A DNA stretch of 64,000 nucleotides from an uncultured Bacillota bacterium (GCA_963804645.1 CAWDRG010000009.1:672001-736000); one strand, 5' to 3'; positions 18,496 through 36,801 are shown, numbered from the stretch's first letter. The notes: generated from the letters alone by a model not told the origin. A program made the numbers and translations.

Positions 18496-18505
18496 TGCGC
18501 TCGGC

Positions 18506-19930: not shown

Positions 19931-20454
19931 CGGGTCTCTCCCACTCCTTCGAGTGACGGTGCTCGGCCGGCCGCCTGCTCCTGCAATACCTGCTCGCGTA
20001 TTCCCCGGAGCCGAACCAGCCGTTCCTGCAGTTCCTTGTGAAGCTTCGCCAGCCGCGCCGTGCGCTCGTCAACGATGCGCATCTGAGACTGTGCCAGCGC
20101 CATGGCCTGATCGAGCAGCCCGAGGCGCGTCGCCGGATCCGTGGCCTGCTGGTACGCCTCGCGGATTTCCGCGCGCACCGCGTCCGCGTGGAGCGTTTCC
20201 TTGATCTCAGCGAGTGAAATGCCGAGGAGCGACTGCAACTCCTTGATCCTCAGCAGCAGGGCGATCTCCGCCTCGGTGAAGAGGCGAAACCCGCCGGCGG
20301 TTCTCCCTGAGGGGGACAGCAGACCCACTTCTTCGTAGTAGCGAATCGCGCGCGGAGTCAAGCTCGTCCGGCGGACAACTTCTTCCATGCGGTAGTTCGC
20401 TTGGGGTCCGGTGGGATCTTGCTCCTCTGAGATGGGTGCCTGACCGTCCGTCAT
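19927..20454 (-). CDS. MerR family transcriptional regulator
   Basis: RAIRYYEEVGLLSPSGRTAGGFRLF, LGISLAEIKE; stop overlaps the emrA start. Confidence 0.93.
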   Translation of the reverse strand: MTDGQAPISEEQDPTGPQANYRMEEVVRRTSLTPRAIRYYEEVGLLSPSGRTAGGFRLFTEAEIALLLRIKELQSLLGISLAEIKETLHADAVRAEIREAYQQATDPATRLGLLDQAMALAQSQMRIVDERTARLAKLHKELQERLVRLRGIREQVLQEQAAGRAPSLEGVGETR

Positions 20455-20499
20455 CCGCTCATTCTCCTACCCAAAGCTTAATCAAATAGCGCTTTAGGG

Positions 20500-20530
20500 A
20501 TTATAACATACTCTTCCGTTAACGTGACAT
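20500..20530 (-). promoter_or_regulatory. Putative sigma70 promoter of merR-emrAB with a MerR-type operator
   Basis: Minus strand ATGTCA-19 bp-TATAAT with extended TG; palindrome CGTTAACG in the spacer. Confidence 0.55.
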
Positions 20531-20823
20531 TGCCCAAATTACTTCCGTTGTTGCCGCCCGTTTTCGGGGCGCCGGGACCGTCGCCATCCCTTCCGTCACG
20601 TAAACGAGAGATTCTACTCCTGCTCGCCGCCTGCCTTGACTTGCCTAGAATGGTTCGACCTGCCCCCCGAGGCGGTGCTGCCTCGGAAGGCGCCTGGTGA
20701 CGCGGGTCGAGGCCGGCACTCACGGGGTGATTCGTCCGTTGAAACTGGCATCGCTTCTTGCTATGCGCCGGCCGGAGCAATCCTGTTCCGGATGCCTATA
20801 TGTATTCGTATTCGCCTTCGACG

Positions 20824-20843
20824 TATAATCGAACACCGGTTCG
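20824..20843 (+). promoter_or_regulatory. TATAAT -10 box followed directly by a LexA (SOS) box upstream of ku
   Basis: TATAAT (20824-20829) then CGAAC-ACCG-GTTCG (20830-20843). Confidence 0.7.
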
Positions 20844-20945
20844 CGTGGCGAAGGCGGCCGTTGCGCATGCGCGCCTGCGGGTATAAGATTCTCGTTGCCG
20901 CCCAAGGCGGCAGCGCGTGGGGGGCATAGCTGGGGGGATCGCGTC

Positions 20946-21809
20946 GTGCGACCGTCTTGGAGGGGCTACGTCAGCTTCGGGCTCGTGACGATTCCCGTTA
21001 AACTGTACACGGCGACCGAACAGAAAGACGTTCGGTTCCGACTGCTGCACACCGTCTGTCATACGCCCATCAAGAATCAGCGCTTCTGTCCTCACTGCGA
21101 CCGCGTGATCGAATGGGCCGACGTCGTCCGCGGGTACGAGGCGAGCAAGGGTCGCTTCGTGCTCGTGACCGACGAGGAGCTGGAGCAGATTCCGATCGAC
21201 ACCAGCGGCAACGTGAATATCGCCGGGTTCGTCGAACTCCAGGACATCGACCCGATCTACTACGAGCGGTCCTACTACGTCGCGCCGGACGAGGGCGGAG
21301 CCAAGGCGTTTCTCCTGCTCGAGGAGGCGCTGCGCGAGGCGAACCGGGTGGCGATCGGCAAAGTGGTGATTCGGGAGAAAGAGCAGCTCGTGTCGCTTCG
21401 CCCGTATCAAAAGGCGATGGTGCTGAGCACGCTGTTCTATGCCGACGAGGTGCGGTCGCTGTCCGGTCTGGAAGAACTGCCGGTGGAGGCCACGGTGCAT
21501 CCCAACGAGCGGAAGATGGCCGTGCAGCTCGTGGAGAATCTCGCGATGGAGTTCAATGTCGAGGAGTTCAAAGACGAGTACCGTGATGCCCTCATGGCGA
21601 TGATCAGTGCGAAGGGTAAGGGCGAGGAAGTCGCCGGGCCGAAAGAGGCGCCCGCCCCGGGCAAGGTCGTCGACCTGATGGAGGCGCTCAAGCGAAGTGT
21701 CGAGATGGCGAAGGGCAGCCATCGGCGGCCGGCGGCCGACGGCAAGAGCGCCCGCGCCGCGGGCCAGCAGCGGCGGGCGGCGGGCGGCATGCACGAGCGT
21801 CCGCGATAG
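20946..21809 (+). CDS. ku: Ku protein (NHEJ end-binding)
   Basis: WRGYVSFGLVTIPVKLY, IDPIYYERSYY, YADEVR, VVDLMEALKRS, basic C-terminal tail. Confidence 0.96.
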   Translation: MRPSWRGYVSFGLVTIPVKLYTATEQKDVRFRLLHTVCHTPIKNQRFCPHCDRVIEWADVVRGYEASKGRFVLVTDEELEQIPIDTSGNVNIAGFVELQDIDPIYYERSYYVAPDEGGAKAFLLLEEALREANRVAIGKVVIREKEQLVSLRPYQKAMVLSTLFYADEVRSLSGLEELPVEATVHPNERKMAVQLVENLAMEFNVEEFKDEYRDALMAMISAKGKGEEVAGPKEAPAPGKVVDLMEALKRSVEMAKGSHRRPAADGKSARAAGQQRRAAGGMHERPR

Positions 21810-21840
21810 CGATCGTCCCCAAGCGCACGCGCGTGACGCG

Positions 21841-21872
21841 CCGAACGGCGGCCCGGAAGGGCCGCCGTTCGG
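21841..21872. terminator. Hairpin between convergent ku and binding-protein genes
   Basis: CCGAACGGCGGCCC-GGAA-GGGCCGCCGTTCGG, a perfect 14-bp stem. Confidence 0.7.
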
Positions 21873-21899
21873 ACTATCGTCGGAACTGCGCCGGCGCGC

Positions 21900-23510
21900 T
21901 TACTTCCAGGTCGCGTAGATCGCGGCCCACTTCTCGTTTGGCGTCACGCTCACGCCCTGCAGATGGTTGGTCGCGACCATGTAGAAGTCCTGACTCCAGA
22001 GGAAGATCCACGGCGCGTCCTTCCAGATCATCTGCTGCGCTTCCTTATACATCGCCTCGCGCTTCGTTTGATCCGGGACCGTCTGGGCCTGCAGCAACAG
22101 GTTGTCGACGTCGGTGTCCTTGTAGAACGACGGCGCCAGCCCGGTGGGCGGCCACTGCCCCGAGTAGAACTGGCCGAACAGCTCGCCGTCGGCGTCCAGG
22201 TACTGCGTCGCCCACCCGAGGATGAAGATCTGAAGCGGGCTCTGCGCCAGCGGAGTCACCATCCACTTCACGTACGTCGGCCAGTCGGAGGTCTGGACGT
22301 TCGCCTGGATCCCGACGTTGCTGAGCTGCGCCGCGACCGCCTGGGCGAACTGATAGTCCTGGATGTACCGCCCCGTGGGGGTCCGGAAGTCGAGCTGGAA
22401 GCCCTGGGGGTAGCCGGCCTCCGAGAGCAGCTTCTTCGCCAGCGTCGGGTTGAACGGCCACCCGCCCGCCTGCAGCTTGGTGTATCCAAACAGCGCCGGG
22501 GTCGTCGGCGACTCGAGCACGTGCGCGAGGCCGAACAGCACGCTGTGGATGATCGCATCCTTGTTGATCGCGTAGTTGAGGGCCTGGCGTACCCGGACGT
22601 CCTTCAGCGGTCCGTATTGGTTGTTGAGCCCGATGAAGACGTCGCGGTCGCTCGCTCCGGAGATCACCGTGAGCGTGTTGTCCTTGCGGAGCGTGGGAAC
22701 GTCCGGGGCGGGCGGTTCGTATGCCATCTGGACGTCGCCCGCGCGCAGCATGGTCTCGCGCGTGCCGGCGTTCGGCACGACGCGGAAGATCACCGTGTCG
22801 AAATACGGCTTCTTCCCCCAATAGTTCGGGTTCTTGACGAGCGTGATGTGGTCGCCGTGCACCCACTCCTTGAACACGTAGGGACCCGTCCCGGCATCCG
22901 TCGGGCCGAGCACGATCTTGTCGTTGCCGATCTTCTTGACCGCGGTCGGCGAGAGGATCATCCCCGGCCCCGCGGCCATCCGCTCGAGCAGCGTCGGACT
23001 GGTCTGCTTGAGGTGCAGCACCACCGTATACGGATCCGGGGTGTCGATCCGGGTGGCGTCGATGTCGGTGAAGTAATACCGGTTCGGATTGCGCACGCTG
23101 GTGTCGAGCCACCGCTGGACGTTGAACTTCACCGCGTCCGCGTTGAAGTCGGTGCCGTCCTGGAACTTGACGCCCTGCCGCAGTTTAAACGTGTAGGTCA
23201 GCCCGTCGGGGCTCACCGTCCACGACGTCGCGAGCTGCGGCGTGAGCTTCGTATACTGGGGCTGGCCCGGTTCCACGCCCGAGCGCTCGTCGTTCGGCCA
23301 GATGAGCGAGTCGAACATGTATTCCACCATGTTGGACACGGTGGTGGTCGTCTGCCCTTCGGGGTCGAGCGTGTCGGCGTCGATGCCGACGGCGATCGTC
23401 AGGGTGGTCGGCGCGGCGGCGAATCCTCCCCGGGGGATCACGAGGAGCACCACCGCCACGACGCAGGCCACCAGCAGCGCGACGACGGGACGTACGGCCG
23501 ATCGGATCAT
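21900..23510 (-). CDS. ABC transporter substrate-binding protein, family 5 (GsiB/DppA-like)
   Basis: Signal peptide, TLDP, LATSWTVSPDGLTYTFKLRQGVKFQDG, GTGPY, DVRVRQALNYAI. Confidence 0.93.
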   Translation of the reverse strand: MIRSAVRPVVALLVACVVAVVLLVIPRGGFAAAPTTLTIAVGIDADTLDPEGQTTTTVSNMVEYMFDSLIWPNDERSGVEPGQPQYTKLTPQLATSWTVSPDGLTYTFKLRQGVKFQDGTDFNADAVKFNVQRWLDTSVRNPNRYYFTDIDATRIDTPDPYTVVLHLKQTSPTLLERMAAGPGMILSPTAVKKIGNDKIVLGPTDAGTGPYVFKEWVHGDHITLVKNPNYWGKKPYFDTVIFRVVPNAGTRETMLRAGDVQMAYEPPAPDVPTLRKDNTLTVISGASDRDVFIGLNNQYGPLKDVRVRQALNYAINKDAIIHSVLFGLAHVLESPTTPALFGYTKLQAGGWPFNPTLAKKLLSEAGYPQGFQLDFRTPTGRYIQDYQFAQAVAAQLSNVGIQANVQTSDWPTYVKWMVTPLAQSPLQIFILGWATQYLDADGELFGQFYSGQWPPTGLAPSFYKDTDVDNLLLQAQTVPDQTKREAMYKEAQQMIWKDAPWIFLWSQDFYMVATNHLQGVSVTPNEKWAAIYATWK

Positions 23511-23681
23511 GGCTCACATCCCTCCTTCTTGCGTATGAGGCTATGCGGCCGGAGCCGCCGATCTGGGCGCGGAGGGTCCCGCGCGACAGGGCTATCTACA
23601 GTACGCGCTGCCGGGGAGGAATTCCTTTGGACGAGGCTTGCGGACTAGGCAGACGACTGCCACCGAAGTAGAATATGCCCC

Positions 23682-23773
23682 GGAGGGGTGCGAGAGCTCG
23701 GCTGAATCGGGCGGTCTCGAAAACCGCTAGGCGGGCAACTGCCTCGGGGGTTCAAATCCCTCCCCCTCCGCCA
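23682..23773 (+). tRNA. tRNA-Ser(CGA)
   Basis: GGAGGGG/CCCCTCC acceptor stem, anticodon arm GCGGT-CTCGAAA-ACCGC, long variable arm, GGTTCAAATCC, encoded G-CCA. Confidence 0.95.
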
Positions 23774-23967
23774 ACGACCCATGAGTGCCATGGGTCGGCG
23801 CACAGGCTTATCGTCCGAGCTGAAGCGCGTCCCGCTGGAGAAATTGCCGCCGTGTACTACATTGTACTGCGTTGTACCATGTACTTTAGACGACGGAAGA
23901 ACCAACCCGTTTTATTATCAGGTCCGCCGTGTTCGTCCAGCGGAGTGCGTCGATGACTTGATCCTGA

Positions 23968-24378
23968 CTACCGCGGTTGTACGTCGATCGGGGGCCCACT
24001 CACGTGCATCTGATCGCGGATTCGGCCCGCAAACTCTGCCGCTCCGTAGCAGCGGAACTTGAACTCCGTGCCGTCGCGTAGCGCCACGGTCACGACGCGC
24101 GTGCCGATTCCGAAGCGATCAGTAACCGACGTAATGTCCGCCAGGGGTACGCGACGGCTCATATTGTCTTTGTGAACGAATCGGTTCATTGCATTCGGTC
24201 GGAAATCGAGACAATCTGGCAAGAGATACATGGTGCCACCGACCCATAAGCCCCTATAGTTTGCCTTGAAAAATTTAAGAGCGATCTTTACTTCCGCGTC
24301 CATTGGAAATCCCAACTCAGCGGATTTGATGAGAGCGTTTACTATCTTTTTGGCAACAATGTTTGCTGGCTCCTCCAT
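23968..24378 (-). CDS. Hypothetical protein, PH/GRAM-like
   Basis: GGAGGTGA RBS before ATG 24378; AT-richer than the backbone; GGTMYL...VPLADITSV pattern. Confidence 0.65.
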   Translation of the reverse strand: MEEPANIVAKKIVNALIKSAELGFPMDAEVKIALKFFKANYRGLWVGGTMYLLPDCLDFRPNAMNRFVHKDNMSRRVPLADITSVTDRFGIGTRVVTVALRDGTEFKFRCYGAAEFAGRIRDQMHVSGPPIDVQPR

Positions 24379-24490
24379 GAATTGTTCACCTCCGTCATCT
24401 ATGTTAGGCACACCATGATTTGCAAGCAATAGGCGCGGTGGAGGACCGGCTCGCGCCCTTGACCATGGAACGTATGCTTGCCGTGATGAG

Positions 24491-24740
24491 CTGCCTCGCG
24501 GAGTTCACATCCTTCCCCTTCGCCAAGAACCCATGAAAGACATGGGTGCGCACGCAGCGCCTCTTGTCCGACTCCGATCGCTTCTCGCGCGAACACTCCG
24601 ACCATGGTAACCGCTTGTACTACTCCGTTTCGCTATGGCAGGCCGCCGCGCGGACTCGGACGGATGCCCATTTCGTGACGCGGACGTGATCTGGACCGGC
24701 ATGGGGCGCGCGCCCGATATCCTGGTGGCTGTGGGGAGCG
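24491..24740 (+). repeat. Degenerate tRNA-Ser 3'-half plus downstream flank, copy A
   Basis: CTGCCTCGCGGAGTTCACATCCTTCCCCTTCGCCA, then the ACCCATG/CATGGGT hairpin, then about 200 bp shared with 26029-26243. Confidence 0.85.
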
Positions 24741-24761
24741 TATTCTTTGAATTGAGGAGAG

Positions 24762-25844
24762 ATGTCAAAACCTGCAGGGGGATGTGCCGTGTCGACTTAC
24801 GTCACCGTCCCGATCGACGAGAATGGCATCATTTCCGATTTATACCTCCCGTCAATTATCTCCGAGTCAACGCACGACCCGTTCCGATTTTCCGATGTGT
24901 TCGTCTACTCGCACGGTTGGTGGACCAATGCCGCGCAGGCCATGACGGACTATAACCACTTCGTCGTGGATCTCACAAGATGTCTCCTGCAGATAGCTCC
25001 GGCGCCGCCGTCCGATCTCGCCCTCCCCCGGTCGTCATTTCCGATTGCGCTCCATTGGCCGTCTATGATTAGCGAGGACCCAGGTTCTCTTGCGAACGCT
25101 GCGGAACTCGCGACCTTTTTCTCAATGGGGAAGCGCGCCGACGTTGTCGGCCAACATGGGGTATCATCGCTCGTGAGAATGCTCTACAACGACTGGAACC
25201 CGCCGACGTCGGACATGAAGTTGCGCCTCAACTTGATCGGGCACAGCTTTGGCTGCCGTGTGGTATGTTCCGGGTTGGCCACGGCGCTCACGACGATTGC
25301 TCAGGAGCAGCGCCGACTTCCCCAGTCAATCCAGTTGAGAGTGGTACTGCTTGCGCCGGCCTTCAACAGCGATGAGCTCCAACATGACCAGGATTACGCT
25401 GCGCTCACCGAACCGGAATTGGACCTGCGCATCCTGGCAACCCGTTCCGACGGGGACACATCGCTCTGCACGTGGTATCCGCGGGCCGAAGCGCTGAATT
25501 TCTTCGCAAAGGAGCCCGTGACGGCGTTGGGCGGCGCAGGTCCGAGCGCACAGACTCTTTCTGACTTTGCCTCAAGCGGTACCGGTATTTCGGTGGGCCC
25601 CGGGTTTACGTATAAAGGGGTCGTCACGAACACCGAGCGCCTCGTCGTCGCAGATCTCAGCGCATTGCATGCCGCGAACCCCGATCATGTGACGAGCAAG
25701 TTCGCCGGCCATCACTCCGACATTTACTACAACGAGATTTACGAGCTGATCGCGGGATTTCTGTTCACGCGTTATCCGTTGGGGGTCGCGCCGCCTCCGG
25801 AATCACGCACCCCTGTTTTAGAATCGCCGGTGACCGCTCGGTAA
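24762..25844 (+). CDS. Alpha/beta-hydrolase fold protein
   Basis: VYSHGWW, LIGHSFG nucleophile elbow, LLAPAF, HHSDIY; GAGGAG RBS. Confidence 0.75.
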   Translation: MSKPAGGCAVSTYVTVPIDENGIISDLYLPSIISESTHDPFRFSDVFVYSHGWWTNAAQAMTDYNHFVVDLTRCLLQIAPAPPSDLALPRSSFPIALHWPSMISEDPGSLANAAELATFFSMGKRADVVGQHGVSSLVRMLYNDWNPPTSDMKLRLNLIGHSFGCRVVCSGLATALTTIAQEQRRLPQSIQLRVVLLAPAFNSDELQHDQDYAALTEPELDLRILATRSDGDTSLCTWYPRAEALNFFAKEPVTALGGAGPSAQTLSDFASSGTGISVGPGFTYKGVVTNTERLVVADLSALHAANPDHVTSKFAGHHSDIYYNEIYELIAGFLFTRYPLGVAPPPESRTPVLESPVTAR

Positions 25845-25973
25845 GCGGGCGCGCCGACAAGCCCCGAGATGCTCGGCGAACGGGACGGCTCGAAGGTGTA
25901 AATTCAATCGCCGGGCCAGAATGTCGAGGACGTTCCGCGAGGTCAATCAAACTGGCACAGCTATGGCGGGCGC

Positions 25974-26243
25974 AAAACTGCTAGGAGGGTAACTGCCTCC
26001 GGGGGTTCAAATTCCTCCCCTTCCGCCAATGCCCCATCAACGACATGGGTCGGCACACAAGCGTGCCCGTTTGATTCGAACCGCGTCTTACCCGAGAACT
26101 GCGGCCATGGTAACCGCTTGTCCTGCTTCGCTTCGTTATGGCAGGCCGCCGCGCGGACTCGGACGGATGCCCCACTTCCTGACGCGGACGTGATCTGGAA
26201 CGGCATGGGGCGCGCGCCTGATACCCTGGCGGCTGTGGGGAGC
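25974..26243 (+). repeat. Degenerate tRNA-Ser 3'-half plus downstream flank, copy B
   Basis: AAAACTGCTAGGAGGGTAACTGCCTCCGGGGGTTCAAATTCCTCCCCTTCCGCCA aligns to tRNA 23720-23773; flank shared with copy A. Confidence 0.9.
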
Positions 26244-26357
26244 TATTATTTAACTTTTGCACGAAATCGATCAGTAGGTGAAAGGTACAGCCGCGGGACG
26301 AGAGCCGGAAAACGTCGAGGGGCGCATCGCAGTAGGCTTTGGGGAGGTGAACCTACA

Positions 26358-28164
26358 ATGGGCGAGCCGGGTGGAAGCTCAGGGGCACCTGATTACGTGA
26401 TCCGGCCGCCTGCTGCATTTCGGCCGGAATGTCCATCAAACTATTGGTGCGACGGAACCGTTAGATCTAACGCCTGCTGCGGGTAGTGGACTGCTCCTCT
26501 CGGTCGGTGCCCGCAGGGTGTGGGTCCGGGGAATATGTTCCTCTCGATCGGTGCCCTGCTTGTTTTGAGTGCGGGCATTGGGCTCGCCCTCTCGATTCTC
26601 ATTGCGGTGATCTTCCGCAAGTATGCGACGCCTGAGCATGCCGTCGCTGACAGCTTCAGTGAGTTTCACACACGCCTGAGCCAGCTGCAAGGTCAGTTCT
26701 CGAGCGATTGCGCCAATCCGGTGGTGCCAAGCGGTGGCTCAGCCGACGCGGCCCGGAGAGAGGTAGGCGAACACCTGCATAGCATCAACAAAGAGCTTCG
26801 TCGGAACGGGCTGCCGTGGGTAAGGGGGACAGGCTATATTAGCCTCTGGGAACGCCTGCACCGTGCCGAAGAAGCCCTCATCGAATTTCAGCCTTCGGGG
26901 GCGGTCGTCGCGGGGGCGATCCTGACGCGCAGCGGCTTCGCGGTTCAAAAATTCCACGCTGCGAAGACGTGATCAAGCAACTGGGGCAGGCTGTCGAGGC
27001 CATTGATCCGTCCGCTCGGAAATACCTTTTTGATCCTCCCACAGCGGCTCTGCCACTAGTCATCAAGAGCCAGCGCAGGCTGGACGACGCAATTGTCGGT
27101 GTCACGTGGTTTAGAAGCTCTCGCGGCGAGCGGGGGCACGCCCCCGTACCATTGGACGTCCGACGACGCGACGCTGCCGCAGTGGGCAATGCTGAGCGAT
27201 ACGGGCGTGGTGGGCGGCACGCCGCCACGGCAGACGGTGGGGCCATGCGGATTTACTGCTCGCGTGACGGATAGCGCCAGCGTGACGGCCACCAAAGATT
27301 TTGCTCTAACTGTCCGCGAGCTGGAGAATGCGACGCTGCTCGATGCGACGTTGGAAGGGCGTACAAGGGAGTCGGGAATCAGCAAGCGGCGTCCGCATAC
27401 ACGAGTGGTCTGATCAAAACTCCTTGCAAGGCGGAGTGGGACTTGCGCGAGAGGGCGTGCTGACCGGCGCGCCGGCGACTGCCGGGATGCTTCGCGTTTC
27501 GGCGCGGGTCGAAAGCGAAGGGCAAGAGATCACCGAAGATGTCACATTAGTTGTGAAGACTCCAGCGGATCGGATTGGTGACAGTGACGCAGATCGAGGC
27601 ACATTGGCGCGGGGTGTGTTGCGCACTGTTCGCCTCGTCATCGATGAGTTCGCGACCAAAACTGGAACGCGATCGTGCTCGCCCGCAATCGCCTCGCGGA
27701 ACTCATGTTTCTCACGGGACTGCTTGGGTACGCGTTACTCGCGATTGCCATCGGGGTGAAGGCGCAACGGAACTCGAAATTGGCTGCTGCAGCGGTTTTC
27801 TATCTGGCTGGTGCGACAACGGGGCTGCTCAGCCGACTGTACAGTGAGTCCCAAGGATAACGCGGTCGTCGGGAGCATTGATCGGACTATGGTCTTGTGC
27901 CGATGCGGGTCTGACATGCTGGTAGTGTCCGGTTTGGCGGCAATTTTCGGTGTGGTGTTGGTGGCGATGCTGCCGCAAGCTGTGAGTGCGTTCACGAGCG
28001 CGGTTGGGGCGGTGGTAACGCGACCCAGCATGCCGTCGTTGGCAGATATTCTCGATCTCGAAGGGCACCTCGCTTACATCATTGTGGCGGCGGTTTTTGG
28101 CCTGACTCCAGGCTGTTCTTTAACCGGCTCAGGGCCTGGCCGACACTTTTCAAGAAGGATTTGA
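26358..28164 (+). pseudogene. Multiply frameshifted membrane protein with a putative Ig (He_PIG-like) domain
   Basis: GGAGGTGA RBS before ATG 26358; consecutive fragments in different frames carry TM helices and ASGGTPPYHW...LP...GVVGGTP...FTARVTDS. Confidence 0.6.
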
Positions 28165-28797
28165 AATCCACCAGCGCCCATCAGAACGAGGCGTCGATGC
28201 GGCAGGGGCGTCGGTGTGGGGCGCCAGGGTTCAACGGCGGCCCTTCACCATCGCGGAATAGATTACGCGTTGATCCTTTCCGAGTGTAGGATGTGATTAT
28301 ATCGTTCAGTATGCCCCCCCACATAATATGGGATTTTGAATGCTCTGCCAAAAAAAGGATAGTTTTGAATTTTTCCGTCGAAGAAATGTTCGATCACCAA
28401 GCGGTAAGCGCTCGGTGCCTACCGCCATGTGCCGACGGTCCACACTGACACCCGCCGGACTGCGGCGGATGACGGTACTCGCTGCGCGGCTGTGCTTCCG
28501 GATCGAGGGAACGGGGGGCAGTCAAATGCGGCGTGGCTGGATGCTGACGGTGCTGATCCTCGGTTGCGTGTAAGGTGTCGACGGCACCATCGCTGGCTGA
28601 AATCACCGGCATGCTCCGCCTGATTAAAGCGTCCACGTTGGCGGATACTTTGGAAGAACAGGGATTTGATGGTCTGAAGATGAAGCCGCAGCGCGGCGGC
28701 GCTGCCATCTCGCGGCGAGGACAGGTGCAGCGTCGCAAGCGGGCGGCAGACAGTTGACGACGTAGTCAATGCAACCCTCCGCGAGGGGGGCGTGGAA

Positions 28798-29581
28798 ATG
28801 GGGACGCGGCTGCAAGGGAAGGTGGCCCTTATCACCCGGGCATCTCAGGGAATGGGACGCACCGCGGCGATCTGTTCGCGAAGAAGGGGCGCGTGTCGCG
28901 ATCGTCGACGTGGACGAGGCGCAGGGCGTCGAGGTCGCCGGCATCATCACCTCCGCCGGCGGGGAGGCGCTGTTGGTCCGCGCGGACGTCAGCGACGCCG
29001 GGCAGGCCCGCGCGGCCGCCGATGCGACCGTCGCCCGGTTCGGCCGCCTCGACGTGCTCTTCAACAACGCGGCCGTCCGCGCGAACGGCGCGCTCCACGA
29101 AATGTCCGAGGAAGACTGGGATCGCGTCGTCGCCGTCAACCTCCGAGGCGTGTTCCTAATGTCCAAGTTCGCCATCCCGTATATGATGAAGCAGGGAGGC
29201 GGCTCGATCATCAACATGTCGTCGGCTGTAGCGTTCGTCGCCATGGAGCGGCGGGCGGCGTATATTGCGACGAAAGGCGCCGTGCTGGCGCTCACGCGCG
29301 CGATGGCGACGGACTACGCGGACCACCACATCCCCGTGAACGCGTTGTGCCCCGGGACCGTGGCGACACCGCGTCTGGTCGCGTCCCTCCGGCCGCCGGG
29401 CGCCGGGGCGCAGGCAACATACTGCCGGTCATCTACACGTCAGGGGACGCTGGCCCGGCCGGATGAACTTGAGGCCGCGGCGCTGTTTCTGGCTTCCGAC
29501 GACTCCAGCTTCATGACGGGCGCCCCGCTGAACGTCGACGGCGGGTTCATCGCTGGCCGGCGGGCGTGGCCGGCCCAATGA
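28798..29581 (+). pseudogene. SDR family oxidoreductase, frameshifted near the 5' end
   Basis: MGTRLQGKVALITRASQGMG in one frame; LDVLFNNAA, YIATKGA, VDGG in another. Confidence 0.8.
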
Positions 29582-29636
29582 CCCGCAGACCACCGCGCCG
29601 CACCCACGGCGCGGTCGGGAAAGAGGCGTGAGAGCT

Positions 29637-29735
29637 GTGGCAACGGTGATCGAGGCTCCGGCGCAGGCACCTACCGCATCGCTGGCCCGGTTCATCGCCG
29701 GCCTCGGGGACAGCCGCTGCACGCATATCGATGAG
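29637..29735 (+). pseudogene. Possible N-terminal stub of an MmgE/PrpD family gene
   Basis: TASLARFIAGL resembles PrpD N-termini; no continuation. Confidence 0.3.
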
Positions 29736-29951
29736 GCCGCGTGCTGGGCGCCGTCCCCGAAAGCTCGCGGCCAGGAAGCCTGGGCGAGCTCGTCCCTGCG
29801 GAAGGCGCGGACGACGGATTCGAGCGGTGTGACGCCGCTCTTGAAGAGTCCGCCTCCTCCTAGAGGCCCTTCGCTCCTCCGGCATCAGGTTATGCCGTCA
29901 CGTGCGGCTTACCGTCCACTACCTCCCACTACCCGTCTGTTACAAGACGCT

Positions 29952-30587
29952 CTAGCCGTTCCAGCGTGAGGTCGCACAAGAATTAACAACCAGCGTCGCG
30001 GAGGAGAAATCATTGGTCCGTGTGTGCGCGGTTGGAACGGCGACCACTGGCATTCCAGCATCTCGGGCAGCTAGCACGCCTTTTTCCGCGTCCTCCAGCA
30101 CCACACATCTGGCAGGCTCCGCCCCGAGATGTTGAACGGTATGAAGAAACACATCGGGATAGGGTTTGGCGCGCGGGACACTTTCTCTGGTCGCAATCAC
30201 GTCAAACACACTTGCAGCACCGATCTTGCGAAGCACGGGGTCGACATCCACCCGAAACGCAGACGTGGCCAGCGCGAGGCGCACGTGTGACCGCAGGGCG
30301 TCAATCAGTTCGAGCGCACACGGCATCGGTTGCAGTTCGGCCTCCAGCAGCGTCGAATAGTAAATCAGCTTGCGTCCTCTCAGCACCTCTGGGTCGCGTC
30401 GGACGCCACGGGCGCGTAGGTAACTCGATGCCACCGGCGCTCGGATCGACAACGCATATCATCAACCGAGCGGCATGCCAATTTCTGCGAGCGTGTCTAG
30501 CCAAGACCGGTAACGCAGGCCTTCCGTGTCAACGAGAAGTCCGTCAAGGTCGAAAATAACGGCCTGCAGCGCTGCCGCGGATGGCAT
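29952..30587 (-). pseudogene. HAD family phosphatase (beta-PGM/CbbY-like), interrupted
   Basis: Hand translation from ATG 30587 gives AVIFDLDGLLVDTE then a premature TGA; downstream ORF has KPYPDVF, VLEDAEKG. Confidence 0.8.
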
Positions 30588-30592
30588 GATCG

Positions 30593-31334
30593 TTAGCGGT
30601 ACCCGCCGTAGATCGCGTGTCCGGCATACATCCAGAAACAGTCAACGATCTGGAATCCGACTTCGCGTAGCCAGTCCAACTGGTCGACGAGGCGAGACGG
30701 CTGATCCACCGGATCCGGCACATCCAGCCGGTAGTGGTTCCAGCGATCATCTCCAAACCCATCGCGCGCGCGCGCATCGCCGAACCTGCGCAGGCTCCGC
30801 TCTTGGACCGCCTCGTCCCACTGCGAAGCAAAGAGACGCGCCACATGAGGCGTCGCCGCCTCGACGAGATCAGCGACGAGGAGCGCGCCCCCGGGCTCCA
30901 AGCGCGCGGCCAAATCCGCGAACAGACGCCGTTTCTCAGGCCCAGGGATATGGTGAATCGCAAGCGAGGAGATCACACACCGCAACGATACCGGAAGAGT
31001 GGCCCGCCAATCGTCGGTACTGTGAGCAACATCTGCGTGCTGCACACGTCGCCGAAGATCCGAGCAACCGCCGCTCTCGCTCCAGCATCACGTCGGAACC
31101 GTCGAACGCGAGCACCTGGCACCGGGGAAATCGCTCGAGCATCTCCTTAGCAAACGTCCCATCGCCCGCAGCGAGCTCGACGATCGTGAACGTTTCGTCA
31201 GCGTCAGCCGGGATCAGGTCGAGAAGAACGCGCCGCTGCTCTTCGCGTGCAGGAACGTACCCGTCGCCGATCTCGGCGAATCGCTCAGAGTCGGCTTCAG
31301 TCCAGCGCGACGGATCGCCGGGATTGCGTAACAT
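30593..31334 (-). pseudogene. Class I SAM-dependent methyltransferase, frameshifted
   Basis: VELAAGDG and FDGSDVML in one frame; SSLAIHHI and LEPGGALLVAD in another. Confidence 0.8.
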
Positions 31335-31445
31335 GATCTCGGCAAAATTCGCGATTGTCAGTGATTGCTCCCGCTCTACCAACGGTAGAGGGTGCCACAC
31401 AAGTGTTTGCTGAAATGATACATGCCGTTCGCTGAACGTTCGCTG

Positions 31446-31838
31446 GCGTGCCCAGAGAACGGGACGCCATGAAAGGAGGTGGGTTTTCGGAACGAGGCGA
31501 TCTCGTGCAAGCTCGTGTTCGCCTACCGGTGGAAGTCCGGTCCGGGTAAGCGCCAGGGCGCCCGGTAGCAGGCTCCTGGTGCGAGGTGGAAACGCCTGGC
31601 ACTGAAGCGGAGCGTCGAAGGCCTGAAGTCGAGGAAGCGACCGCTCAGCCCGTAACATGACGTGAATCCTGCCGCCTCGTGAAGTTAACCCCGCAAGGGG
31701 ACCAGAGGGAGCCGAGTCGGGTAGTTCGCGACGAAGGCCATGGAAAGCGTGAAGCGCTTGGAGATGCAGCGCTGAAGGACCCTCCGGGGTATGGGGAGCG
31801 GGATGAGCGGAAGGTGGACACGGGAACTGGGGACACCC
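31446..31838 (+). mobile_element. Group II intron 5' fragment (domain I only, no RT ORF)
   Basis: GCGTG-CCC...GGG 5' end; GGTGGAAGTCCGGTCCGGGTAAG, CCGGTAGC, GAAGCG, GAGCCGAG, GAAGGC, GGGGTATGGGGAGCGG and GGAACTGGGGACACCC motifs in typical domain I order. Confidence 0.7.
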
Positions 31839-32487
31839 GCCCCCCGGGTGACGGACCGTTTCCGGCCGTTGTACTTCTCCCCGGCTGTGACGGGAGCTTC
31901 GACACGATCAACGAACACTACTTGGCGCTCTTTCAGCAACAAGGGTACGTCGTACTCGCGCTTGATGTGCACGGGTCGAGACACGTCTGCCCAAACTTGT
32001 CGGCGCTTCCTTCCTTTACCGTAGCGAAAGACGCGATCGGCGCGCACGTCTATCTGCGTTCGCTCCCCTATGTTGACGCGAACCGTATCGCGGTCGTGGG
32101 ATGGAGCCTGGGAGGCGAAGCCGCCTCGTCCGCGGGCAACAAGGGATCGATCGTCGGCGCGCTCACTGAGTGGTGCCGGCTGCCTTCGCGTTCTATCCGG
32201 ATTGCGAGTATCTTCTGCATTACGCGAAAGATGCTCGCGTCCCCACGCTCATCCTGATTGGGCAGGCGGACGACTGGGATTCGCCTAGCGAGTGCCAGGA
32301 CGCCGCGCAGGCCTCGCAGCAGAACGGGCAGCCGGTCACGATCCAGACGTTCCCCGGAGCGCCTCACGCGTTCGACGTGGCTCCGAAACCGATTGTGTAT
32401 CTGGGGCACAAGGAGGCGTACGATGCGGCGGCAGCAGCAGTGGCCCAGAGCGCGCTGCTGAGTTTTCTCGGGGACAATTTCAAATAG
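31839..32487 (+). pseudogene. Dienelactone hydrolase family, 5'-truncated and frameshifted
   Basis: GPFPAVVLLPGCDG, GWSLGG; second frame AFYPDC, PTLILIGQADDW, GAPHAFD. Confidence 0.8.
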
Positions 32488-32531
32488 CACGGCTATTTCA
32501 CCACCCAGGTCCTAGCGGCGGCGGTGGGGCC

Positions 32532-32645
32532 GGCAACTGCCCCGGGGGTTCAAATCCATCACCCTCCGCCAATGATCCAGGAACCACGTGGGCTGCGCAC
32601 GCCGTGTCCGACTCGAACCGCACCCCAGAATATTAGCCGCCGTGT
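32532..32645 (+). repeat. Degenerate tRNA-Ser 3'-half plus flank, copy C
   Basis: GGCAACTGCCCCGGGGGTTCAAATCCATCACCCTCCGCCA, then a decayed hairpin and GCGCAC...GTCCGACTCGAACCGC. Confidence 0.8.
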
Positions 32646-32684
32646 GATCTCGGGTGAGAATGCAGTGGCTGGCTTCTTTGGGGG

Positions 32685-32850
32685 GTGTTCGTCGTGCACC
32701 GATTCGAACTACAGGTTCTGCGGCGCCCAACGCGCAATGACGTCGCGGACCTGGACGATCAGATTGCGGCGTTCAACTGCGACGCAACCAACGCCCCGGG
32801 ACGACCTGGAACTCGGCATCTTCGTCCGCGGCGGCGATGGCAGCCTCAAT
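32685..32850 (+). pseudogene. Possible GNAT acetyltransferase N-terminal remnant
   Basis: LDDQIAAFN...(frameshift)...ELGIFVR. Confidence 0.3.
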
Positions 32851-33367
32851 GTCGACGGCGAACCTACTTCGTGAAAATCGCGTTCCCATCAACGACCGTC
32901 ACGAGCCGCCACCCCTGGGCGCTGAGTGCATTGAGATTGGATGCTGCGGCTGCGCACCTGGATGCGGCGAAATTTAATTGAGCGTTCACGTTGCTCGCCC
33001 GGCCCTGGGTGCGGAGGCTGCTTGGACACCCGTGATTTGACCCAGGGTGAACACGGTGTATTGAATGGACGTCGCGGCGTACGAGGCCGAGTGAGGCGTT
33101 CCGATGAGGAACCCAGCCCGAAGACGGCAAGAACAAATCCTAACAGTGTGCTCCGCACCAAATCACCCCCGGCCTCTGGACGGCACTCGCTTCGGACGGC
33201 TCTGGGCGCCCCTCGCTCGTGCCGTTTCGTCGGGACGATGTTGTTGAGGCCTTACATTGTGGGCGCAACTCTTAATCGTAATAATTGAGTCCACGCGCAG
33301 GGACCGGCTGCAGACACCGCAAATAAGCGGTTGAAACGAACACACAATGTGCAAAGAGGTGTGGATC

Positions 33368-33706
33368 ATGCGATTTCTTGTGACCGCGGAATACGTCGAA
33401 GTGGGCGCGTTGCTGCCGCCGGAGGCGATCGGCCCGCTGGCGCAGCACGTTATTCTCCCGAGTCTCGAAATGTTGGCGAAGTGGGAGCAGGACGGCAAGA
33501 TCCGTGGCGGCGTGCATGCCGGAGAGCGATCCGGCGCCTTCATTGTCGACGCCGCGTCCAACGAGGAAGTTGGAACGCTCCTCGCGAGCCTGCCATTTTG
33601 GGGGCTGGTGAAGTGGGACGTGACCCCGCTGCAGTCCTGGGCGTCCACCGTCGAGCGAGACCGAGGCGCCTTTCAAAGGGCCGCGTCCGGCGTCCCCAAG
33701 CGCTGA
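33368..33706 (+). CDS. Muconolactone isomerase/YciI-like dimeric alpha-beta barrel protein
   Basis: GAGGTG RBS; MRFLV, GAFIVDAASNEEV, LASLPFW, VTPL. Confidence 0.75.
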   Translation: MRFLVTAEYVEVGALLPPEAIGPLAQHVILPSLEMLAKWEQDGKIRGGVHAGERSGAFIVDAASNEEVGTLLASLPFWGLVKWDVTPLQSWASTVERDRGAFQRAASGVPKR

Positions 33707-33953
33707 CTCGGCTGTGTGAGATGAGCTCCGACCCCGTGCCGGGGCGCCCGTTGGCCCCCGGCGCGGGGGGCAGCGTGGCCAATAGGCCGGCAGGTCCCCT
33801 CGACGAACCCGTTCGGTTCCGCGGACTTTGAGAATCATGAGATCTTCATAGACTCTTGGCGAGTTCTTCTCCCGGCTGCGGGACCCTCAGAAGTGTCAGA
33901 ACCTTGCGGCCCGCGACGGCACGGGCACGCAGGGTAGATCCGAGCCTCTGGGG

Positions 33954-34250
33954 TTGATGGTCGTGCTGCGGGCACTGGCAAACGGTCGGGTGGCTCGGTT
34001 CGTGGTCTTGAGTGCGGCGTTTGTCGCGTTGAGCGGACTTCCGGCGTATGCCCAATCGGGCGGACACTACCGGCACAACCAGAGCAGCGAGTCGTGCCAG
34101 GCCGGCCGCTGGCAGCAGGCCAACACGTGTCGGGGTCAGCCTCAGCAGTATCGGGGGCCCGAGTATCAGGCGCCCGCGCAGCCTCAGCCGGATCGGGGCG
34201 GGCCCGCGCAGTCTCCCGCGCGTATTCCAGACGATGGAAGCAGCAAGTAG
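33954..34250 (+). CDS. Small secreted hypothetical protein
   Basis: Signal peptide ending AYA, then a Gln/Pro-rich chain with two Cys. Confidence 0.5.
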   Translation: MMVVLRALANGRVARFVVLSAAFVALSGLPAYAQSGGHYRHNQSSESCQAGRWQQANTCRGQPQQYRGPEYQAPAQPQPDRGGPAQSPARIPDDGSSK

Positions 34251-35157
34251 GCGCGCGAACAGGCCTACGGCTCACGCTGAATGAGACGCGGTTTCGCGGA
34301 CTCCCTCCCGGGCCGGGTACCCTGGAGGGAGTCCGTTTCCGTCCGCGCCGCGGCGGCGGGACCGATGCTCGGAGTATCGCCCCAGGAGAACACGAGCTGG
34401 TCGGTCCCGGCGACGTGATAAATCGTCACGAGACGGCCGCCCACGCAGCGCTCGCCCGCCTTCGTCATCGCGCACTTCTCGCTCGCAGGGCCCAAGAACT
34501 TCAGCAGTGCTGCTGACACTTCCCGTATTGATTCCAGAGCGCCGAATTCGAGAGACACTGCGGCTGCTGTGGAAATGCCGCGGCCACCGCATTGTAAACG
34601 GCATAACTGGGCGGCTCGCGGCGAGGACCCCGAACGAGCGCGTCCCCAAGGGGTCCGCCCGCAAAGCGGCACGAAGAAAGTCATCACGAGCGAGCGCATG
34701 TTCATCCACTTCCGCAGGGTCGCCGCGCCGTGTTCGACGCAGGGTGCCGCCGGCCAGCCCGGCCTTGATTCGCGCCCGGTCCGGCCTTTCGTGCGGGGCG
34801 GGTTTGGTCCTTCACTCTAAAACGTCGCGCCGCACGCGGCGACGGGCCCGAATGCACCGGCTCCTGGCGCCGACGCCCGCGGCACCGTGTCCCTTCGTGT
34901 TTGCTGAGTCGCCGGACTTGTCGATCGAACTGGCCGCGGGGTCCCGCCAGTCCGAATGGCGGCCGATCACGCGTGGTGGTTCAATCGTCAGGCCGGCAGT
35001 TCGAGGGGTTCCACGGTGCGGGGCGAAACATGGGGAATCTTGCGGGATTGGAGCGCCGCGCGGCGGCAAGGTGTGCGCCGTTCGTCTCCCCGCCGGCGGA
35101 GGGGATCCCGACGACGACGATCCCCTCCGGATCGGCTCATTCTATGATGGAGCGTGT

Positions 35158-35736
35158 ATGCCGGAACGTGCGTTCCGCATCTTGGGCATCCCGGGCAGCC
35201 TGAGGCGGTTTTCGTGGAATCGCGGGCTGCTCGTGGCGGCGCGAGAGGGCGCTCCCTCAGGAATCGAAATCCACATCGCCGATCTCTCCCCGATTCCACT
35301 GTTCAACGAGGATGTGGAGGCCGCCGGGGCGCCGCCGGCGGTCGAGGCGTTTCGGCAGGAGATCCGCGCGGCCGATGCGCTGCTGATCGCGGTGCCGGAA
35401 TACAACTATTCAATGCCGGGCGTGCTCAAGAATGCGATCGACTGGGCGGCCCGGCCTTCGCGAGAGAGTGCGCTGCGCCGTAAACCCGCGGCGCTCATGG
35501 GGGCGGGCGGCGCGAGCGGCACGGTGCGCTCCCAGCTCGCTCTTCGACAGGTGTTCGTGTTTACCGAGACCTACGTGCTGCCGAAACCGGAGCTGTACGT
35601 GCGGAACGCCGCCGCCAGTTTCGACGCCGAGGGCCGGTTGACCGACGCCCACGTGCGCGACCAACTGCCGCCGCTGCTGGCCGCGCTCGTCAAGTGGACG
35701 CGGGCGGTCGCCCACATGAGCGACGACGCGCGCTGA
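35158..35736 (+). CDS. NADPH-dependent FMN reductase (ChrR-like)
   Basis: GSLRRFSWN, PEYNYSMPGVLKNAIDW. Confidence 0.92.
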   Translation: MPERAFRILGIPGSLRRFSWNRGLLVAAREGAPSGIEIHIADLSPIPLFNEDVEAAGAPPAVEAFRQEIRAADALLIAVPEYNYSMPGVLKNAIDWAARPSRESALRRKPAALMGAGGASGTVRSQLALRQVFVFTETYVLPKPELYVRNAAASFDAEGRLTDAHVRDQLPPLLAALVKWTRAVAHMSDDAR

Positions 35737-35801
35737 CCCTGTAGGAGCGCCGCGGTCCCGCCGTGGCGCGGCGCCGCGGAGATACGGCGAGCGGCGTCGC
35801 G

Positions 35802-36266
35802 CTATCCCGGCGGCGGGGCGGGTGTCAGCCCGTGACGGCGCATGATCTCGACCATCTTTGCCCGATCGGGCGGACCCCCGGCCGCGGAGACCATCACCGC
35901 CGTCATCTCGCGAAAGTACTCGGGGCCGAGCACGCCGGGACTGATCACGCAGAGCTGCTTGACGTCCTCGGAGCCGCGATTGTCGAATCGATGGACCGCG
36001 CCGCGGGGGATGCACAGCGACTGTCCCGGCGCGACGTCAAACGGTGCGCCGTCGACCGTCCAGGTCAAGACGCCGGTGAGGCCATAGACCGTTTCTTCGT
36101 ACCGGTCATGACTGTGCGCCGGCGCGGTCAACCGCTCTCCCGCCGGAACGGTCAATTCGAAGAGCGCCGCGCTGCCGTTTGAGTCGGCGCCGGTGACCAA
36201 GAAGCGAATCCCCAACGGGCCGGCCTGGATCATTTCATCCGAGGCATTCACCCGGAGCGATGTCAT
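35802..36266 (-). CDS. Cupin domain protein
   Basis: HSHDRYEE and PRGAVHRF. Confidence 0.88.
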   Translation of the reverse strand: MTSLRVNASDEMIQAGPLGIRFLVTGADSNGSAALFELTVPAGERLTAPAHSHDRYEETVYGLTGVLTWTVDGAPFDVAPGQSLCIPRGAVHRFDNRGSEDVKQLCVISPGVLGPEYFREMTAVMVSAAGGPPDRAKMVEIMRRHGLTPAPPPG

Positions 36267-36477
36267 GCGAGCCCCCTTCTCGGCGCGGCCGCGGAGTCTC
36301 TCTGTAGCGCGGGGTGGAGATTCATCGGCACCGAATCGCGATCCTCCGACGCCGGGCGGCGGTCCGTCCGCCATGCCCGGCGTCGGCGAGCCCGGCTGCT
36401 CAACTCAAACCTGCCCTACTGCTCAGCATTTTCTTGACGCGTTCGACCCACCCGCGTATAGTCAAAATCAAACTTCA

Positions 36478-36678
36478 TACCGTGCTGGGTGGGTGCCCCC
36501 GGTTCGCCGGGGGTAAAAGGGAAGTCCGGTGCGCGGTCCGCGGGTACGACGCCCGCGGGTGCCGCAACGCCGGCGCGGTCCCGCCACTGTAACGGGGAGC
36601 TGTTCCGCAGCGCCACTGGTCATCTGGGAAGGCGCGGAGCGGCGATGATCCGGAGCCAGGAAACCTGCCCGTCCAGCT
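36478..36678 (+). promoter_or_regulatory. Cobalamin riboswitch
   Basis: GGTGC...AAAAGGGAAGTCCGGTG...CCGGCGCGGTCCCGCCACTGTAA...GCCACTG...GGGAAGGC...GAGCCAGGAAACCTGCC (B12 box). Confidence 0.95.
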
Positions 36679-36801
36679 GCGTACGGCGACCTTCGGCCGA
36701 AAGGTAAGTACGCCCGCGGCGCACCGCCGCTTTTGGTCCCCGTGCCTCGATCGTTGGGGCCATTTTATTTTGGGGCGCGTGCCGCGAACGGGGGGATTGG
36801 G

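Follow-up and report, generated by a model that had tools for sequence, protein, structure and literature searches.

The window analysed here, a 64,000-nucleotide stretch of DNA (C9:672001-736000), belongs to the metagenome-assembled genome (MAG) G000 of an uncultured bacterium of peat soil, which comprises 5.3 Mb in 22 contigs; the contig holding the window, C9, is 1.4 Mb long. The window contains an intact and functional tRNA-Ser(CGA) gene, called with ARAGORN, and behind it a row of direct repeats of the 3' part of this gene, which divide the following DNA into three units. The 63-nt repeat family, found by a repeat search of the window, consists of four copies starting at 23745 (in the tRNA itself), 24497, 26000 and 32543, with spacings of 752, 1,503 and 6,543 bp. 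Copies 2, 3 and 4 show 67%, 84% and 67% identity to the tRNA copy over the 63 nt. This agrees with the original prediction for this locus, according to which the 3' part of tRNA-Ser(CGA) recurs in direct orientation with CCA ends at 24525, 26028 and 32571.

The similarity extends past the CCA, as had also been proposed, and does so in every copy, with a shared flank (F) of 57-100 bp. A profile of repeat and flank, built from the copies and run over the whole 5.3-Mb genome, matches 97-103 nt per site (E 8e-20 to 3e-25) and recovers exactly five copies, all at two tRNA-Ser genes, instead of the genome-wide dispersal of a miniature inverted-repeat or short interspersed element, an alternative that the prediction itself had raised. 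The sole site outside the array lies directly behind the functional tRNA-Ser(TGA) gene (C9:195499-195586), about 500 kb away, and the CCA-proximal flank of copy 2 is 94% identical to the flank of that gene over 32 nt. The next match of the profile is tRNA-Ser(GGA), with the tRNA part alone; across the genome, the profile finds no repeat with flank at tRNA-Ser(GGA) or tRNA-Ser(GCT). The anticodon stem and loop of tRNA-Ser(CGA) and tRNA-Ser(TGA) are alike except for the first anticodon base, and tRNA-Ser(GGA) and tRNA-Ser(GCT) differ in the anticodon stem-loop. The contents of the units correspond to the earlier description, with a PH-like gene in the 0.75-kb unit, a hydrolase gene in the 1.5-kb unit and decayed genes in the 6.5-kb unit. 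The GC content within the region is 0.52-0.63, compared to 0.65-0.70 around it.

A chimeric tRNA gene with foreign DNA behind it

The tRNA-Ser(CGA) gene is a chimera of a family-typical 5' half and a foreign-type 3' half. Across 16 relatives, the 5' half is identical to that of G000 at 43-46 of 46 positions (43-44 in the same genus), whereas the 3' half of all four same-genus genomes matches at 34-35 of 46, with 11-12 positions differing. Among the 16 relatives, an identical 3' half (46/46) is found only in G011, a member of another genus, and there without the flank. The inserted DNA replaced the 3' half of the tRNA, and the genus-type 3' half is absent from the window and from the whole genome; the distal end of the array is therefore truncated, and the first displaced fragment has since been lost. 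Copy 4 is not the original attR, because an F-type flank follows it.

The flank is likewise non-native. In all eight relatives at tRNA-Ser(CGA) the profile match stops at the CCA, and at tRNA-Ser(TGA) homology stops there in eight of eight; with the tRNA and its flank as query against 40 relatives, none among the matches listed passes query position 101. Partial tRNA-Ser matches in relatives that start at query positions 23-35 could be read as anticodon-loop fragments; at least one of them, at G017:C22, is a tRNA-Ser(TGA) gene, and no claim is made from these matches. The unpublished genome G034 likewise underlies none of the conclusions.

Synteny of the tRNA with the upstream SBP gene extends over genus and family, and several relatives show the locus in an empty state. 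The tRNA of G011 lies ~150 bp from the homolog of window position 36471 onward, and in G001 and G003 this gap is ~670 bp. Four further relatives (G002, G005, G010 and G012) carry other ordinary accessory genes behind the tRNA, with no repeats and no mobile genes, and none of the 37 PF00589 matches of the relatives lies on a contig carrying this locus. Homology of the window with relatives restarts at ~35106-35146 in an FMN-reductase gene common to G002 and G005, and a second restart at 36440-36471 consists of a conserved promoter and a cobalamin riboswitch; to the left of this gene, at 35106, the contigs from peat depart from the window sequence. The variable region thus measures ~11.3 kb. Of the extent first assigned to the array, from 23682 to 32645, the start at the tRNA stands and the end does not, as variable DNA reaches ~35.1 kb; the profile shows no further repeat copy in the distal stretch beyond copy 4. 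The chimeric tRNA, the foreign flank, the low GC content and the empty sites bear out the proposal that the repeats are att-type scars of insertions at the tRNA. The riboswitch (36474-36686, plus strand, 94.7 bits) lies behind the ~36440 promoter and is conserved in G011, G001 and G003.

The tRNA-Ser(CGA) gene shows further irregularities in other genomes. The assemblies of G001 (C104/C1) and G003 (C45/C133) break within it, at tRNA position 77, and mixed haplotypes may exist 3' of the tRNA in those populations too. In genus g5 the gene has another kind of insert, which duplicates the 5' 48 nt of the tRNA. Here, G021 (L080, G021:C43:74500-81000) encodes a 397-aa tyrosine integrase between the 5' duplicate and the tRNA, and G013 (L081, G013:C176:1500-9500) has integrase pieces alone, on both sides of the tRNA.

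Strain turnover and the arms of the units

In strains that are near-identical to this one (97-99% in the gene next to the array), other units abut the tRNA. A scan of 241 million metagenome records for the signature of the locus led to 12 loci, five of which are strong profile matches; the other seven are at chance level and have no tRNA-Ser. Three haplotypes are found at the tRNA-proximal position. The contig L075 matches the window from 17087 to 24584 (99.4% over 7.5 kb). The contig L072 shows 99.2% identity through the SBP gene and the tRNA, after which an F2-type arm abuts the tRNA and unit 1 is absent; this arm is 91% identical to that of unit 2 and is followed by an IS110 transposase. 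The 3.4-kb MAG record L174 is 97.3% identical to G000 over 3.2 kb and has an F3 arm abutting the tRNA. In L074 and L079, the F3 unit of L174 instead sits behind a displaced tRNA fragment, with the right arm of another unit upstream, and this fragment and the tRNA are 100% identical between the first anticodon-loop base and the CCA. The similarity between L174 and L074 (92.7% over 370 bp) begins exactly at the anticodon loop. L174 and L074/L079 are the states expected before and after an insertion with its breakpoint at the anticodon loop. The comparison of cassette content that the original prediction called for thus shows differences among near-identical strains.

Contigs of four peat runs from two studies (Logan contigs, depth 3-8) cover units 1 and 2 at about 98-100% identity; unit 3 and the stretch at 32.6-35.1 kb are almost uncovered, at a coverage so low as to be uninformative. 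Joints listed from these contigs, with sides of 22-43 bases or an unspecified intervening part, are not used as evidence of excision. The IS110-family transposase of L072 (L072:1888-3607) lies exactly at the end of the F2 arm and joins the arm to distant DNA.

The left ends of the units are formed by conserved arms. In all copies the hairpin CCCATG-N5-CATGGG lies a few bases past the CCA and is followed by ~60-100 bp of further similarity. In the F1 arm of unit 1 it is found at 23778-23794, with TGTACTRC at 23853 and 23863. The window contains four occurrences of this motif, where 0.67 would be expected, and three of them lie inside arms. Copies 2 and 3 share about 245 bp, of which 170 bases (24570-24739 versus 26073-26243, 83-92%) lie beyond the four-copy repeat, and a 215-bp F2 arm is common to unit 2, unit 3 and L072, with the distal ~140 bp more than 93% conserved in the three copies; only two full copies are present in the genome. 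The F2 arm of unit 2 contains GGTAACC and TGTACTAC. GGTAACC is unenriched in the window (2 matches versus 2.7 expected), and both matches lie within F2 arms. The F2 arm is non-coding, because its copies differ by one-base indels, and it shows no RNA-structure signal (fold z +1.3 and +2.0; 0 of 47 predicted pairs covary among three sequences). An Rfam search of the arms gives no match.

The right end of unit 2 is conserved as well. The ~140 bp 5' of copy 3 align with the stretch before the tRNA fragment of L074 at z 6.9, a score reached in 0 of 300 shuffles; a profile search with the right arm recovered its own members alone. Both ends of unit 2 are therefore common to other units, which favours a complete mini-element over a random remnant.

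Cargo, further features and recombinase genes

Unit 1 (23774-24484) holds a single open reading frame (ORF) on the minus strand with a ribosome-binding site. Its 136-aa product has 10 homologs (63-96% identity) in 5.8 billion clusters and no match in Pfam, NCBIfam or PADLOC. The protein is probably GRAM- or bacterial-PH (bPH)-like, as its ESM Atlas neighbours are GRAM/bPH clusters with scores of 0.93-0.96; the AlphaFold model, with a mean pLDDT of 42.8, is too poor for a fold search. Elsewhere in the phylum the gene occurs only in G017 (1 of 93 other genomes), at 81% nucleotide identity confined to the ORF, where it lies in a low-GC tRNA-Gln island about 560 bp from an integrase fragment. The cargo of unit 1 travels in tRNA-linked islands, which does not decide between the readings weighed below. 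Unit 2 (24526-25964) contains a single intact gene that fills the space between its arms; the true start of this hydrolase gene may be further in, and its product has 292 homologs, the best at 96% and the next at 55% or less. Long ORFs cover 0-0.5 of the sequence at 26-34 kb, compared to about 1.0 elsewhere in the window, so the decay in this part is no habit of the assembly. The intron piece in unit 3 matches the Rfam model group-II-D1D4-4 over its full length (90.9 bits); as neither a reverse transcriptase nor domain V/VI lies nearby, it is an intron fragment. In the four peat runs, summed contig depth peaks in the bin of this piece (12-49), suggesting that the community harbours a multi-copy intron family.

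Table. Features of the array and its surroundings, in window coordinates
Feature	Position	Strand	Basis or remark
Promoter-like site	23646..23674	+	8 bp upstream of the tRNA; 9/12 consensus match only
tRNA-Ser(CGA), intact, functional, chimeric	23682..23773	+	ARAGORN
F1 arm, left end of unit 1	23774..23890	+	Homologous to the tRNA-Ser(TGA) flank C9:195587-195679
Unit 1 cargo, 136-aa protein	23968..24378	-	Very small family, probably GRAM/bacterial-PH-like
Copy 2, decayed tRNA 3' fragment (3' strand of variable arm to CCA)	24485..24525	+	Repeat search, alignment, profile
F2 arm, left end of unit 2	24526..24740	+	Alignment with copy 3 arm and L072 arm
Unit 2 cargo, DUF900-family alpha/beta-hydrolase, intact	24762..25844	+	Pfam PF05990, E 1e-4
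Right arm of unit 2	25831..25964	+	Local alignment with metagenome contig L074
Copy 3, anticodon stem to CCA, one base inserted	25965..26028	+	Repeat search, alignment
F2 arm, left end of unit 3	26029..26243	+	83-92% identical to 24526-24740
Unit 3 body, largely decayed	26244..32517	.	Pfam six-frame ORFs, Rfam, low long-ORF cover
Ig-like fragment, unit 3	27060-27410		
SDR gene, intact, unit 3	28769-29581		
HAD gene, split over two frames, unit 3	29955-30641	-	
Methyltransferase gene, split over two frames, unit 3	30596-31190	-	
Group II intron D1-D4 piece, 138 nt, unit 3	31523-31660	+	Rfam
Dienelactone hydrolase gene, split over two frames, unit 3	31661-32484	+	
Copy 4, variable arm to CCA (32571), with 57 bp of F-type flank	32518..32628	+	Profile
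Distal variable stretch, ORF-poor, no closing repeat	32629..35105	.	No homology in relatives
Muconolactone-isomerase-like ORF, distal stretch	33335-33703		
Native DNA resumes: FMN-reductase gene, then promoter and riboswitch	35106..36686	+	

The units encode no recombinase. A Pfam scan (E<=0.05) of 108 of the 127 listed stop-to-stop ORFs of at least 55 aa finds no tyrosine or serine recombinase or remnant of one in any of them; the other 19 ORFs overlap or are contained in the hydrolase, SDR and FMN-reductase genes or sit at the margin, and a separate Pfam scan included the three main ones. The genome contains 11 PF00589, 4 PF00239 and 5 PF07508 matches, all on contigs other than C9, so that the absence of a recombinase ORF noted in the original prediction for the window extends to the whole 1.4-Mb contig. 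The prediction had also named an integrase remnant inside each unit as a sign of ordinary tandem islands, and none is present in any frame scanned. Relaxase or transfer genes do not appear in the Pfam scan of the ORFs either, in which no search was aimed at them.

Searches for the array's sequences in other collections did not reveal a helper recombinase. The signature of tRNA end and hairpin has 0 matches in IMG/VR, and its six matches in GTDB representative genomes are all due to chance and have no tRNA. A 22-mer of the arm has 0 matches in the GTDB representatives, and a 31-mer of the tRNA 3' half has 0 in IMG/VR. G000 has no close homolog of the tRNA-Ser(CGA) integrase of G021 or of the IS110 transposase of L072. 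A pair of tyrosine recombinase genes at C15:9.8-16.3 kb was considered as a helper and rejected, as it belongs to an element of its own: this ~5.5-kb element (G000:C15:9800-16320, L171) carries the two recombinase genes and a sulfatase gene and splits the gene of an SOS-response-associated peptidase (SRAP) into N- and C-terminal halves. An ORF beside this pair that resembles one of L074 is core DNA. Four large serine recombinase genes (C15:461k, C4:172k, C11:14.5k and C15:241k) form two identical-score pairs, which suggests two two-copy mobile elements, and a further fragment of such a gene is located some 800 bp from tRNA-Ala(CGC), at C15:442205.

The site behind tRNA-Ser(TGA), outside the window, carries an insert of the same family (C9:195499-205650, L022:5500-15650). 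It consists of an F1-type arm followed by low-GC DNA, a LuxR-type response regulator and two DDE_Tnp_1_4 transposases; a closing tRNA fragment was not found at its distal boundary. The conserved genes lie ~5.5 kb further from tRNA-Ser(TGA) than in G001 and G003. The locus L070 has a 290-bp stretch (78%) in common with this insert.

Origin of the array and its known counterparts

This locus was very probably shaped by site-specific insertion at the anticodon loop, by which the tRNA is regenerated. In the proposed mechanism, at least three small integrative units would have inserted one after another into tRNA-Ser(CGA), with the breakpoint at or in the anticodon loop, and the same family would also target tRNA-Ser(TGA). 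Each unit would supply a replacement 3' half of the tRNA together with a conserved left arm (F, 100-245 bp), composed of the post-CCA hairpin and the TGTACTRC/GGTAACC motifs, and unit 2 at least would also possess a conserved right arm. Every insertion would leave the tRNA intact and shift the previous 3' half with its F arm downstream. The units would contain cargo only, namely a GRAM-like gene, a DUF900 hydrolase and a decayed metabolic set, and since they encode no recombinase, they would have to be moved in trans by an enzyme outside the array. This scenario, in which small non-autonomous units insert serially and site-specifically with a recombinase encoded elsewhere acting in trans, is given a slightly better than even chance. 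It is preferred because single genes fill the space between the arms, because the arms of unit 2 are two-sided and because several units coexist. The foreign inserts, the chimeric tRNA, the breakpoint position, the turnover between strains and the lack of recombinase genes are shown; it is inferred that the responsible enzyme is a tyrosine-type integrase with arm binding and that the small units are themselves mobile and not leftovers.

A number of observations weigh against this trans-mobilized origin. The helper recombinase, an integrase acting in trans in the original prediction, was not found in the 96.8%-complete assembly, in any public match or in the five short metagenome contigs with the signature, and neither circular forms nor a clean excision joint were observed; the genome itself is a MAG, with 4.2% contamination. 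The original distal attR is missing, and unit 3, with its 6.5 kb of decayed sequence, could once have held an integrase. The right arm does not extend clearly to the other units: in the same shuffle-tested alignment the right end of unit 3 shows marginal similarity to that of unit 2 (20 of 300 shuffles), and none is seen for the right end of unit 1. The sequence of L072 past the IS110 transposase is 98% identical to C9:345-347 kb, 350 kb off, and reflects either an IS-mediated rearrangement or an assembly chimera; only its junction of tRNA and arm is usable. The decay of the fragments is not ordered by position either. The expectation that the newest unit lies nearest the tRNA is contradicted by the match to the current 3' half, which is 41/58 in copy 2 compared to 51/58 and 46/58 in copies 3 and 4; one before/after pair does show a tRNA-proximal insertion.

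It is possible, with a clearly lower probability, that the units are ordinary tandem islands which decayed in the manner of cis-mobilizable elements (CIMEs), internal deletions having removed the integrase and most of the cargo and kept attL and attR. The units would then be fixed by now, or mobile only in cis upon the arrival of a complete element alongside. This is a published route to att-flanked elements and tandems without an integrase (as described in PMC5704250), and 15 Dehalococcoides ssrA islands without integration modules are reported in PMC3146451. The visible decay of unit 3, the lost distal attR, the lack of positional order in fragment decay and the location of the unit 1 gene of G017 close to an integrase fragment all fit it. 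It would, however, require two independent deletions that each spared just one gene, as one intact gene fills the inter-arm space in unit 1 and in unit 2. An integrase remnant in no frame of the units, arms of unit 2 that are both common to other units and the coexistence of several different small units with the same arms in the population also speak against such decay.

Exchange of foreign segments by homologous recombination anchored in the tRNA and the downstream gene, with the repeats arising from unequal crossing-over, is improbable. A crossover within the tRNA would likewise yield a chimeric tRNA, and the relatives hold differing ordinary accessory genes at this position in the absence of repeats and mobile genes, as expected of a recombination hot spot. 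Such exchange leaves unexplained the direct tRNA 3' fragments that each carry the same foreign flank, the presence of this flank at a second tRNA-Ser gene and a homology breakpoint exactly at the anticodon loop; moreover, G011 has the same 3' half without the flank. Very improbable is the derivation of the flank from the 3' tail of a recombinase gene that overlapped its own att site, like dsiB of Dehalococcoides, in which case every unit would originally have carried a recombinase gene of its own, directed towards the tRNA. The precedent is described in PMC3146451, and minus-strand ORFs at 24508-24801 and 25984-26352 do cross the F2 arms, with their stops in the tRNA fragments. The three arm copies, however, differ by one-base indels, which break the frames at different places, and their translations are rich in Arg, Pro and Ser. 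The arm ORFs have no Pfam match, and a search of 1.84 billion representatives with the 98-aa arm ORF (one frame of one copy) gives 0 relatives at E<=0.001. These results lend no support to reading the sequence adjacent to the repeat as the end of a recombinase gene, as it is in DsiB-type islands.

Recombinase-less, att-flanked elements and tandem stacks are already known. In the tRNA-island survey PMC4383910, an attP centred on the anticodon (2,083 of 3,919 islands) and 3' displaced fragments (3,760 of 3,919) form the commonest layout, and the Islander procedure requires one integrase per island. The array resembles Islander-type islands in the regeneration of the tRNA target by element-borne sequence (the tRNA is intact with a chimeric 3' half), in foreign composition and in tandem stacking, as well as in the direct 3' fragments, three of them here, that mark the unit ends and in the breakpoint at the anticodon loop. 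It differs from them in that neither the units nor contig C9 contain an integrase gene (PF00589, PF00239 or PF07508) and that two units measure 0.75 and 1.5 kb with one gene each. For six species, a recent survey (bioRxiv 10.64898/2026.01.13.699239) describes integrative elements as always larger than 4 kb, with one 2-kb exception; only intervals above 2 kb were counted in it.

CIMEs and tandem accretion are described for ICESt1-related elements of Streptococcus in PMC5704250. As in CIMEs, fragments flank each unit and no recombinase domain is present; CIMEs as characterized there are likewise att-flanked tandem elements at a tRNA-type site, devoid of genes for integration and transfer and reliant on the recombinase of another element. 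In contrast, CIMEs in that account are decay products of integrative and conjugative or integrative and mobilizable elements beside a related complete element, whereas array and genome here have no complete element. The units also have arms in common but no cargo, and in two of them a single gene occupies the inter-arm space. The Dehalococcoides ssrA arrays described in PMC3146451 are similar in their tandem islands behind one small-RNA gene with 3'-end repeats, in a conserved repeat-adjacent sequence and strain-specific content, and in the lack of an integration module in about half of the islands. They differ in their known large serine recombinase DsiB, reported there for 16 islands, and in a 20-bp repeat, a T-loop site and islands of many kilobases (PMC3146451).

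The array shares with integron cassettes the row of mostly single-gene, promoter-poor and recombinase-less units with their own recombination sites and strain-variable content. The comparison with an integron drawn in the original prediction nevertheless holds as an analogy only: no IntI or other adjacent integrase lies beside the array, with no tyrosine recombinase on the contig, and its head is a tRNA gene. Nor was an attI, an attC (for which no model was run) or a demonstrated promoter identified. The arms, unlike integron sites, are long and two-sided, the unit ends are tRNA fragments, and the genes do not all point the same way, unit 1 being reversed. Xer-dependent elements (IMEX) and the pdif modules of Acinetobacter plasmids are small recombinase-less modules with sites for a host tyrosine recombinase. 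They also stack in tandem, and their sites are dif-like XerC/D sites of 28 bp in place of tRNA genes. At this locus no dif-like site was noticed, and no systematic search for one was made. Against this background, the unusual features of the array are the 0.75- and 1.5-kb single-gene units, the shared arms with unrelated cargo and the lack of a complete sibling.

More tentatively, and with rather less than an even chance, the locus might represent a tRNA-based platform for gene capture that accommodates sub-2-kb, often single-gene cassettes with a two-sided attachment module. This module would comprise the right arm, the tRNA-Ser 3' half from the anticodon loop and the F arm, and a dedicated recombinase on a helper element or in the host would insert, stack and exchange the cassettes at tRNA-Ser(CGA) and tRNA-Ser(TGA). 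If true, such a platform would be a functional analogue of the integron built on a tRNA gene.

The locus offers test material, with a defined attB (the anticodon stem-loop of two tRNA-Ser genes), arms and a before/after pair, and several of its haplotypes are present in public peat and soil data. Island finders anchored on integrases and surveys of att intervals above 2 kb cannot see such units. If the units are only decayed islands, they would be unusually clean CIME-like remnants outside the Firmicutes. If single genes equipped only with a two-sided att module do insert and exchange at tRNA genes in natural populations, the lower size limit of integrative elements would fall well below the ~4 kb now assumed, and a mechanism would be at hand for some of the strain-level gene turnover that counts as "unexplained" in uncultured soil bacteria.

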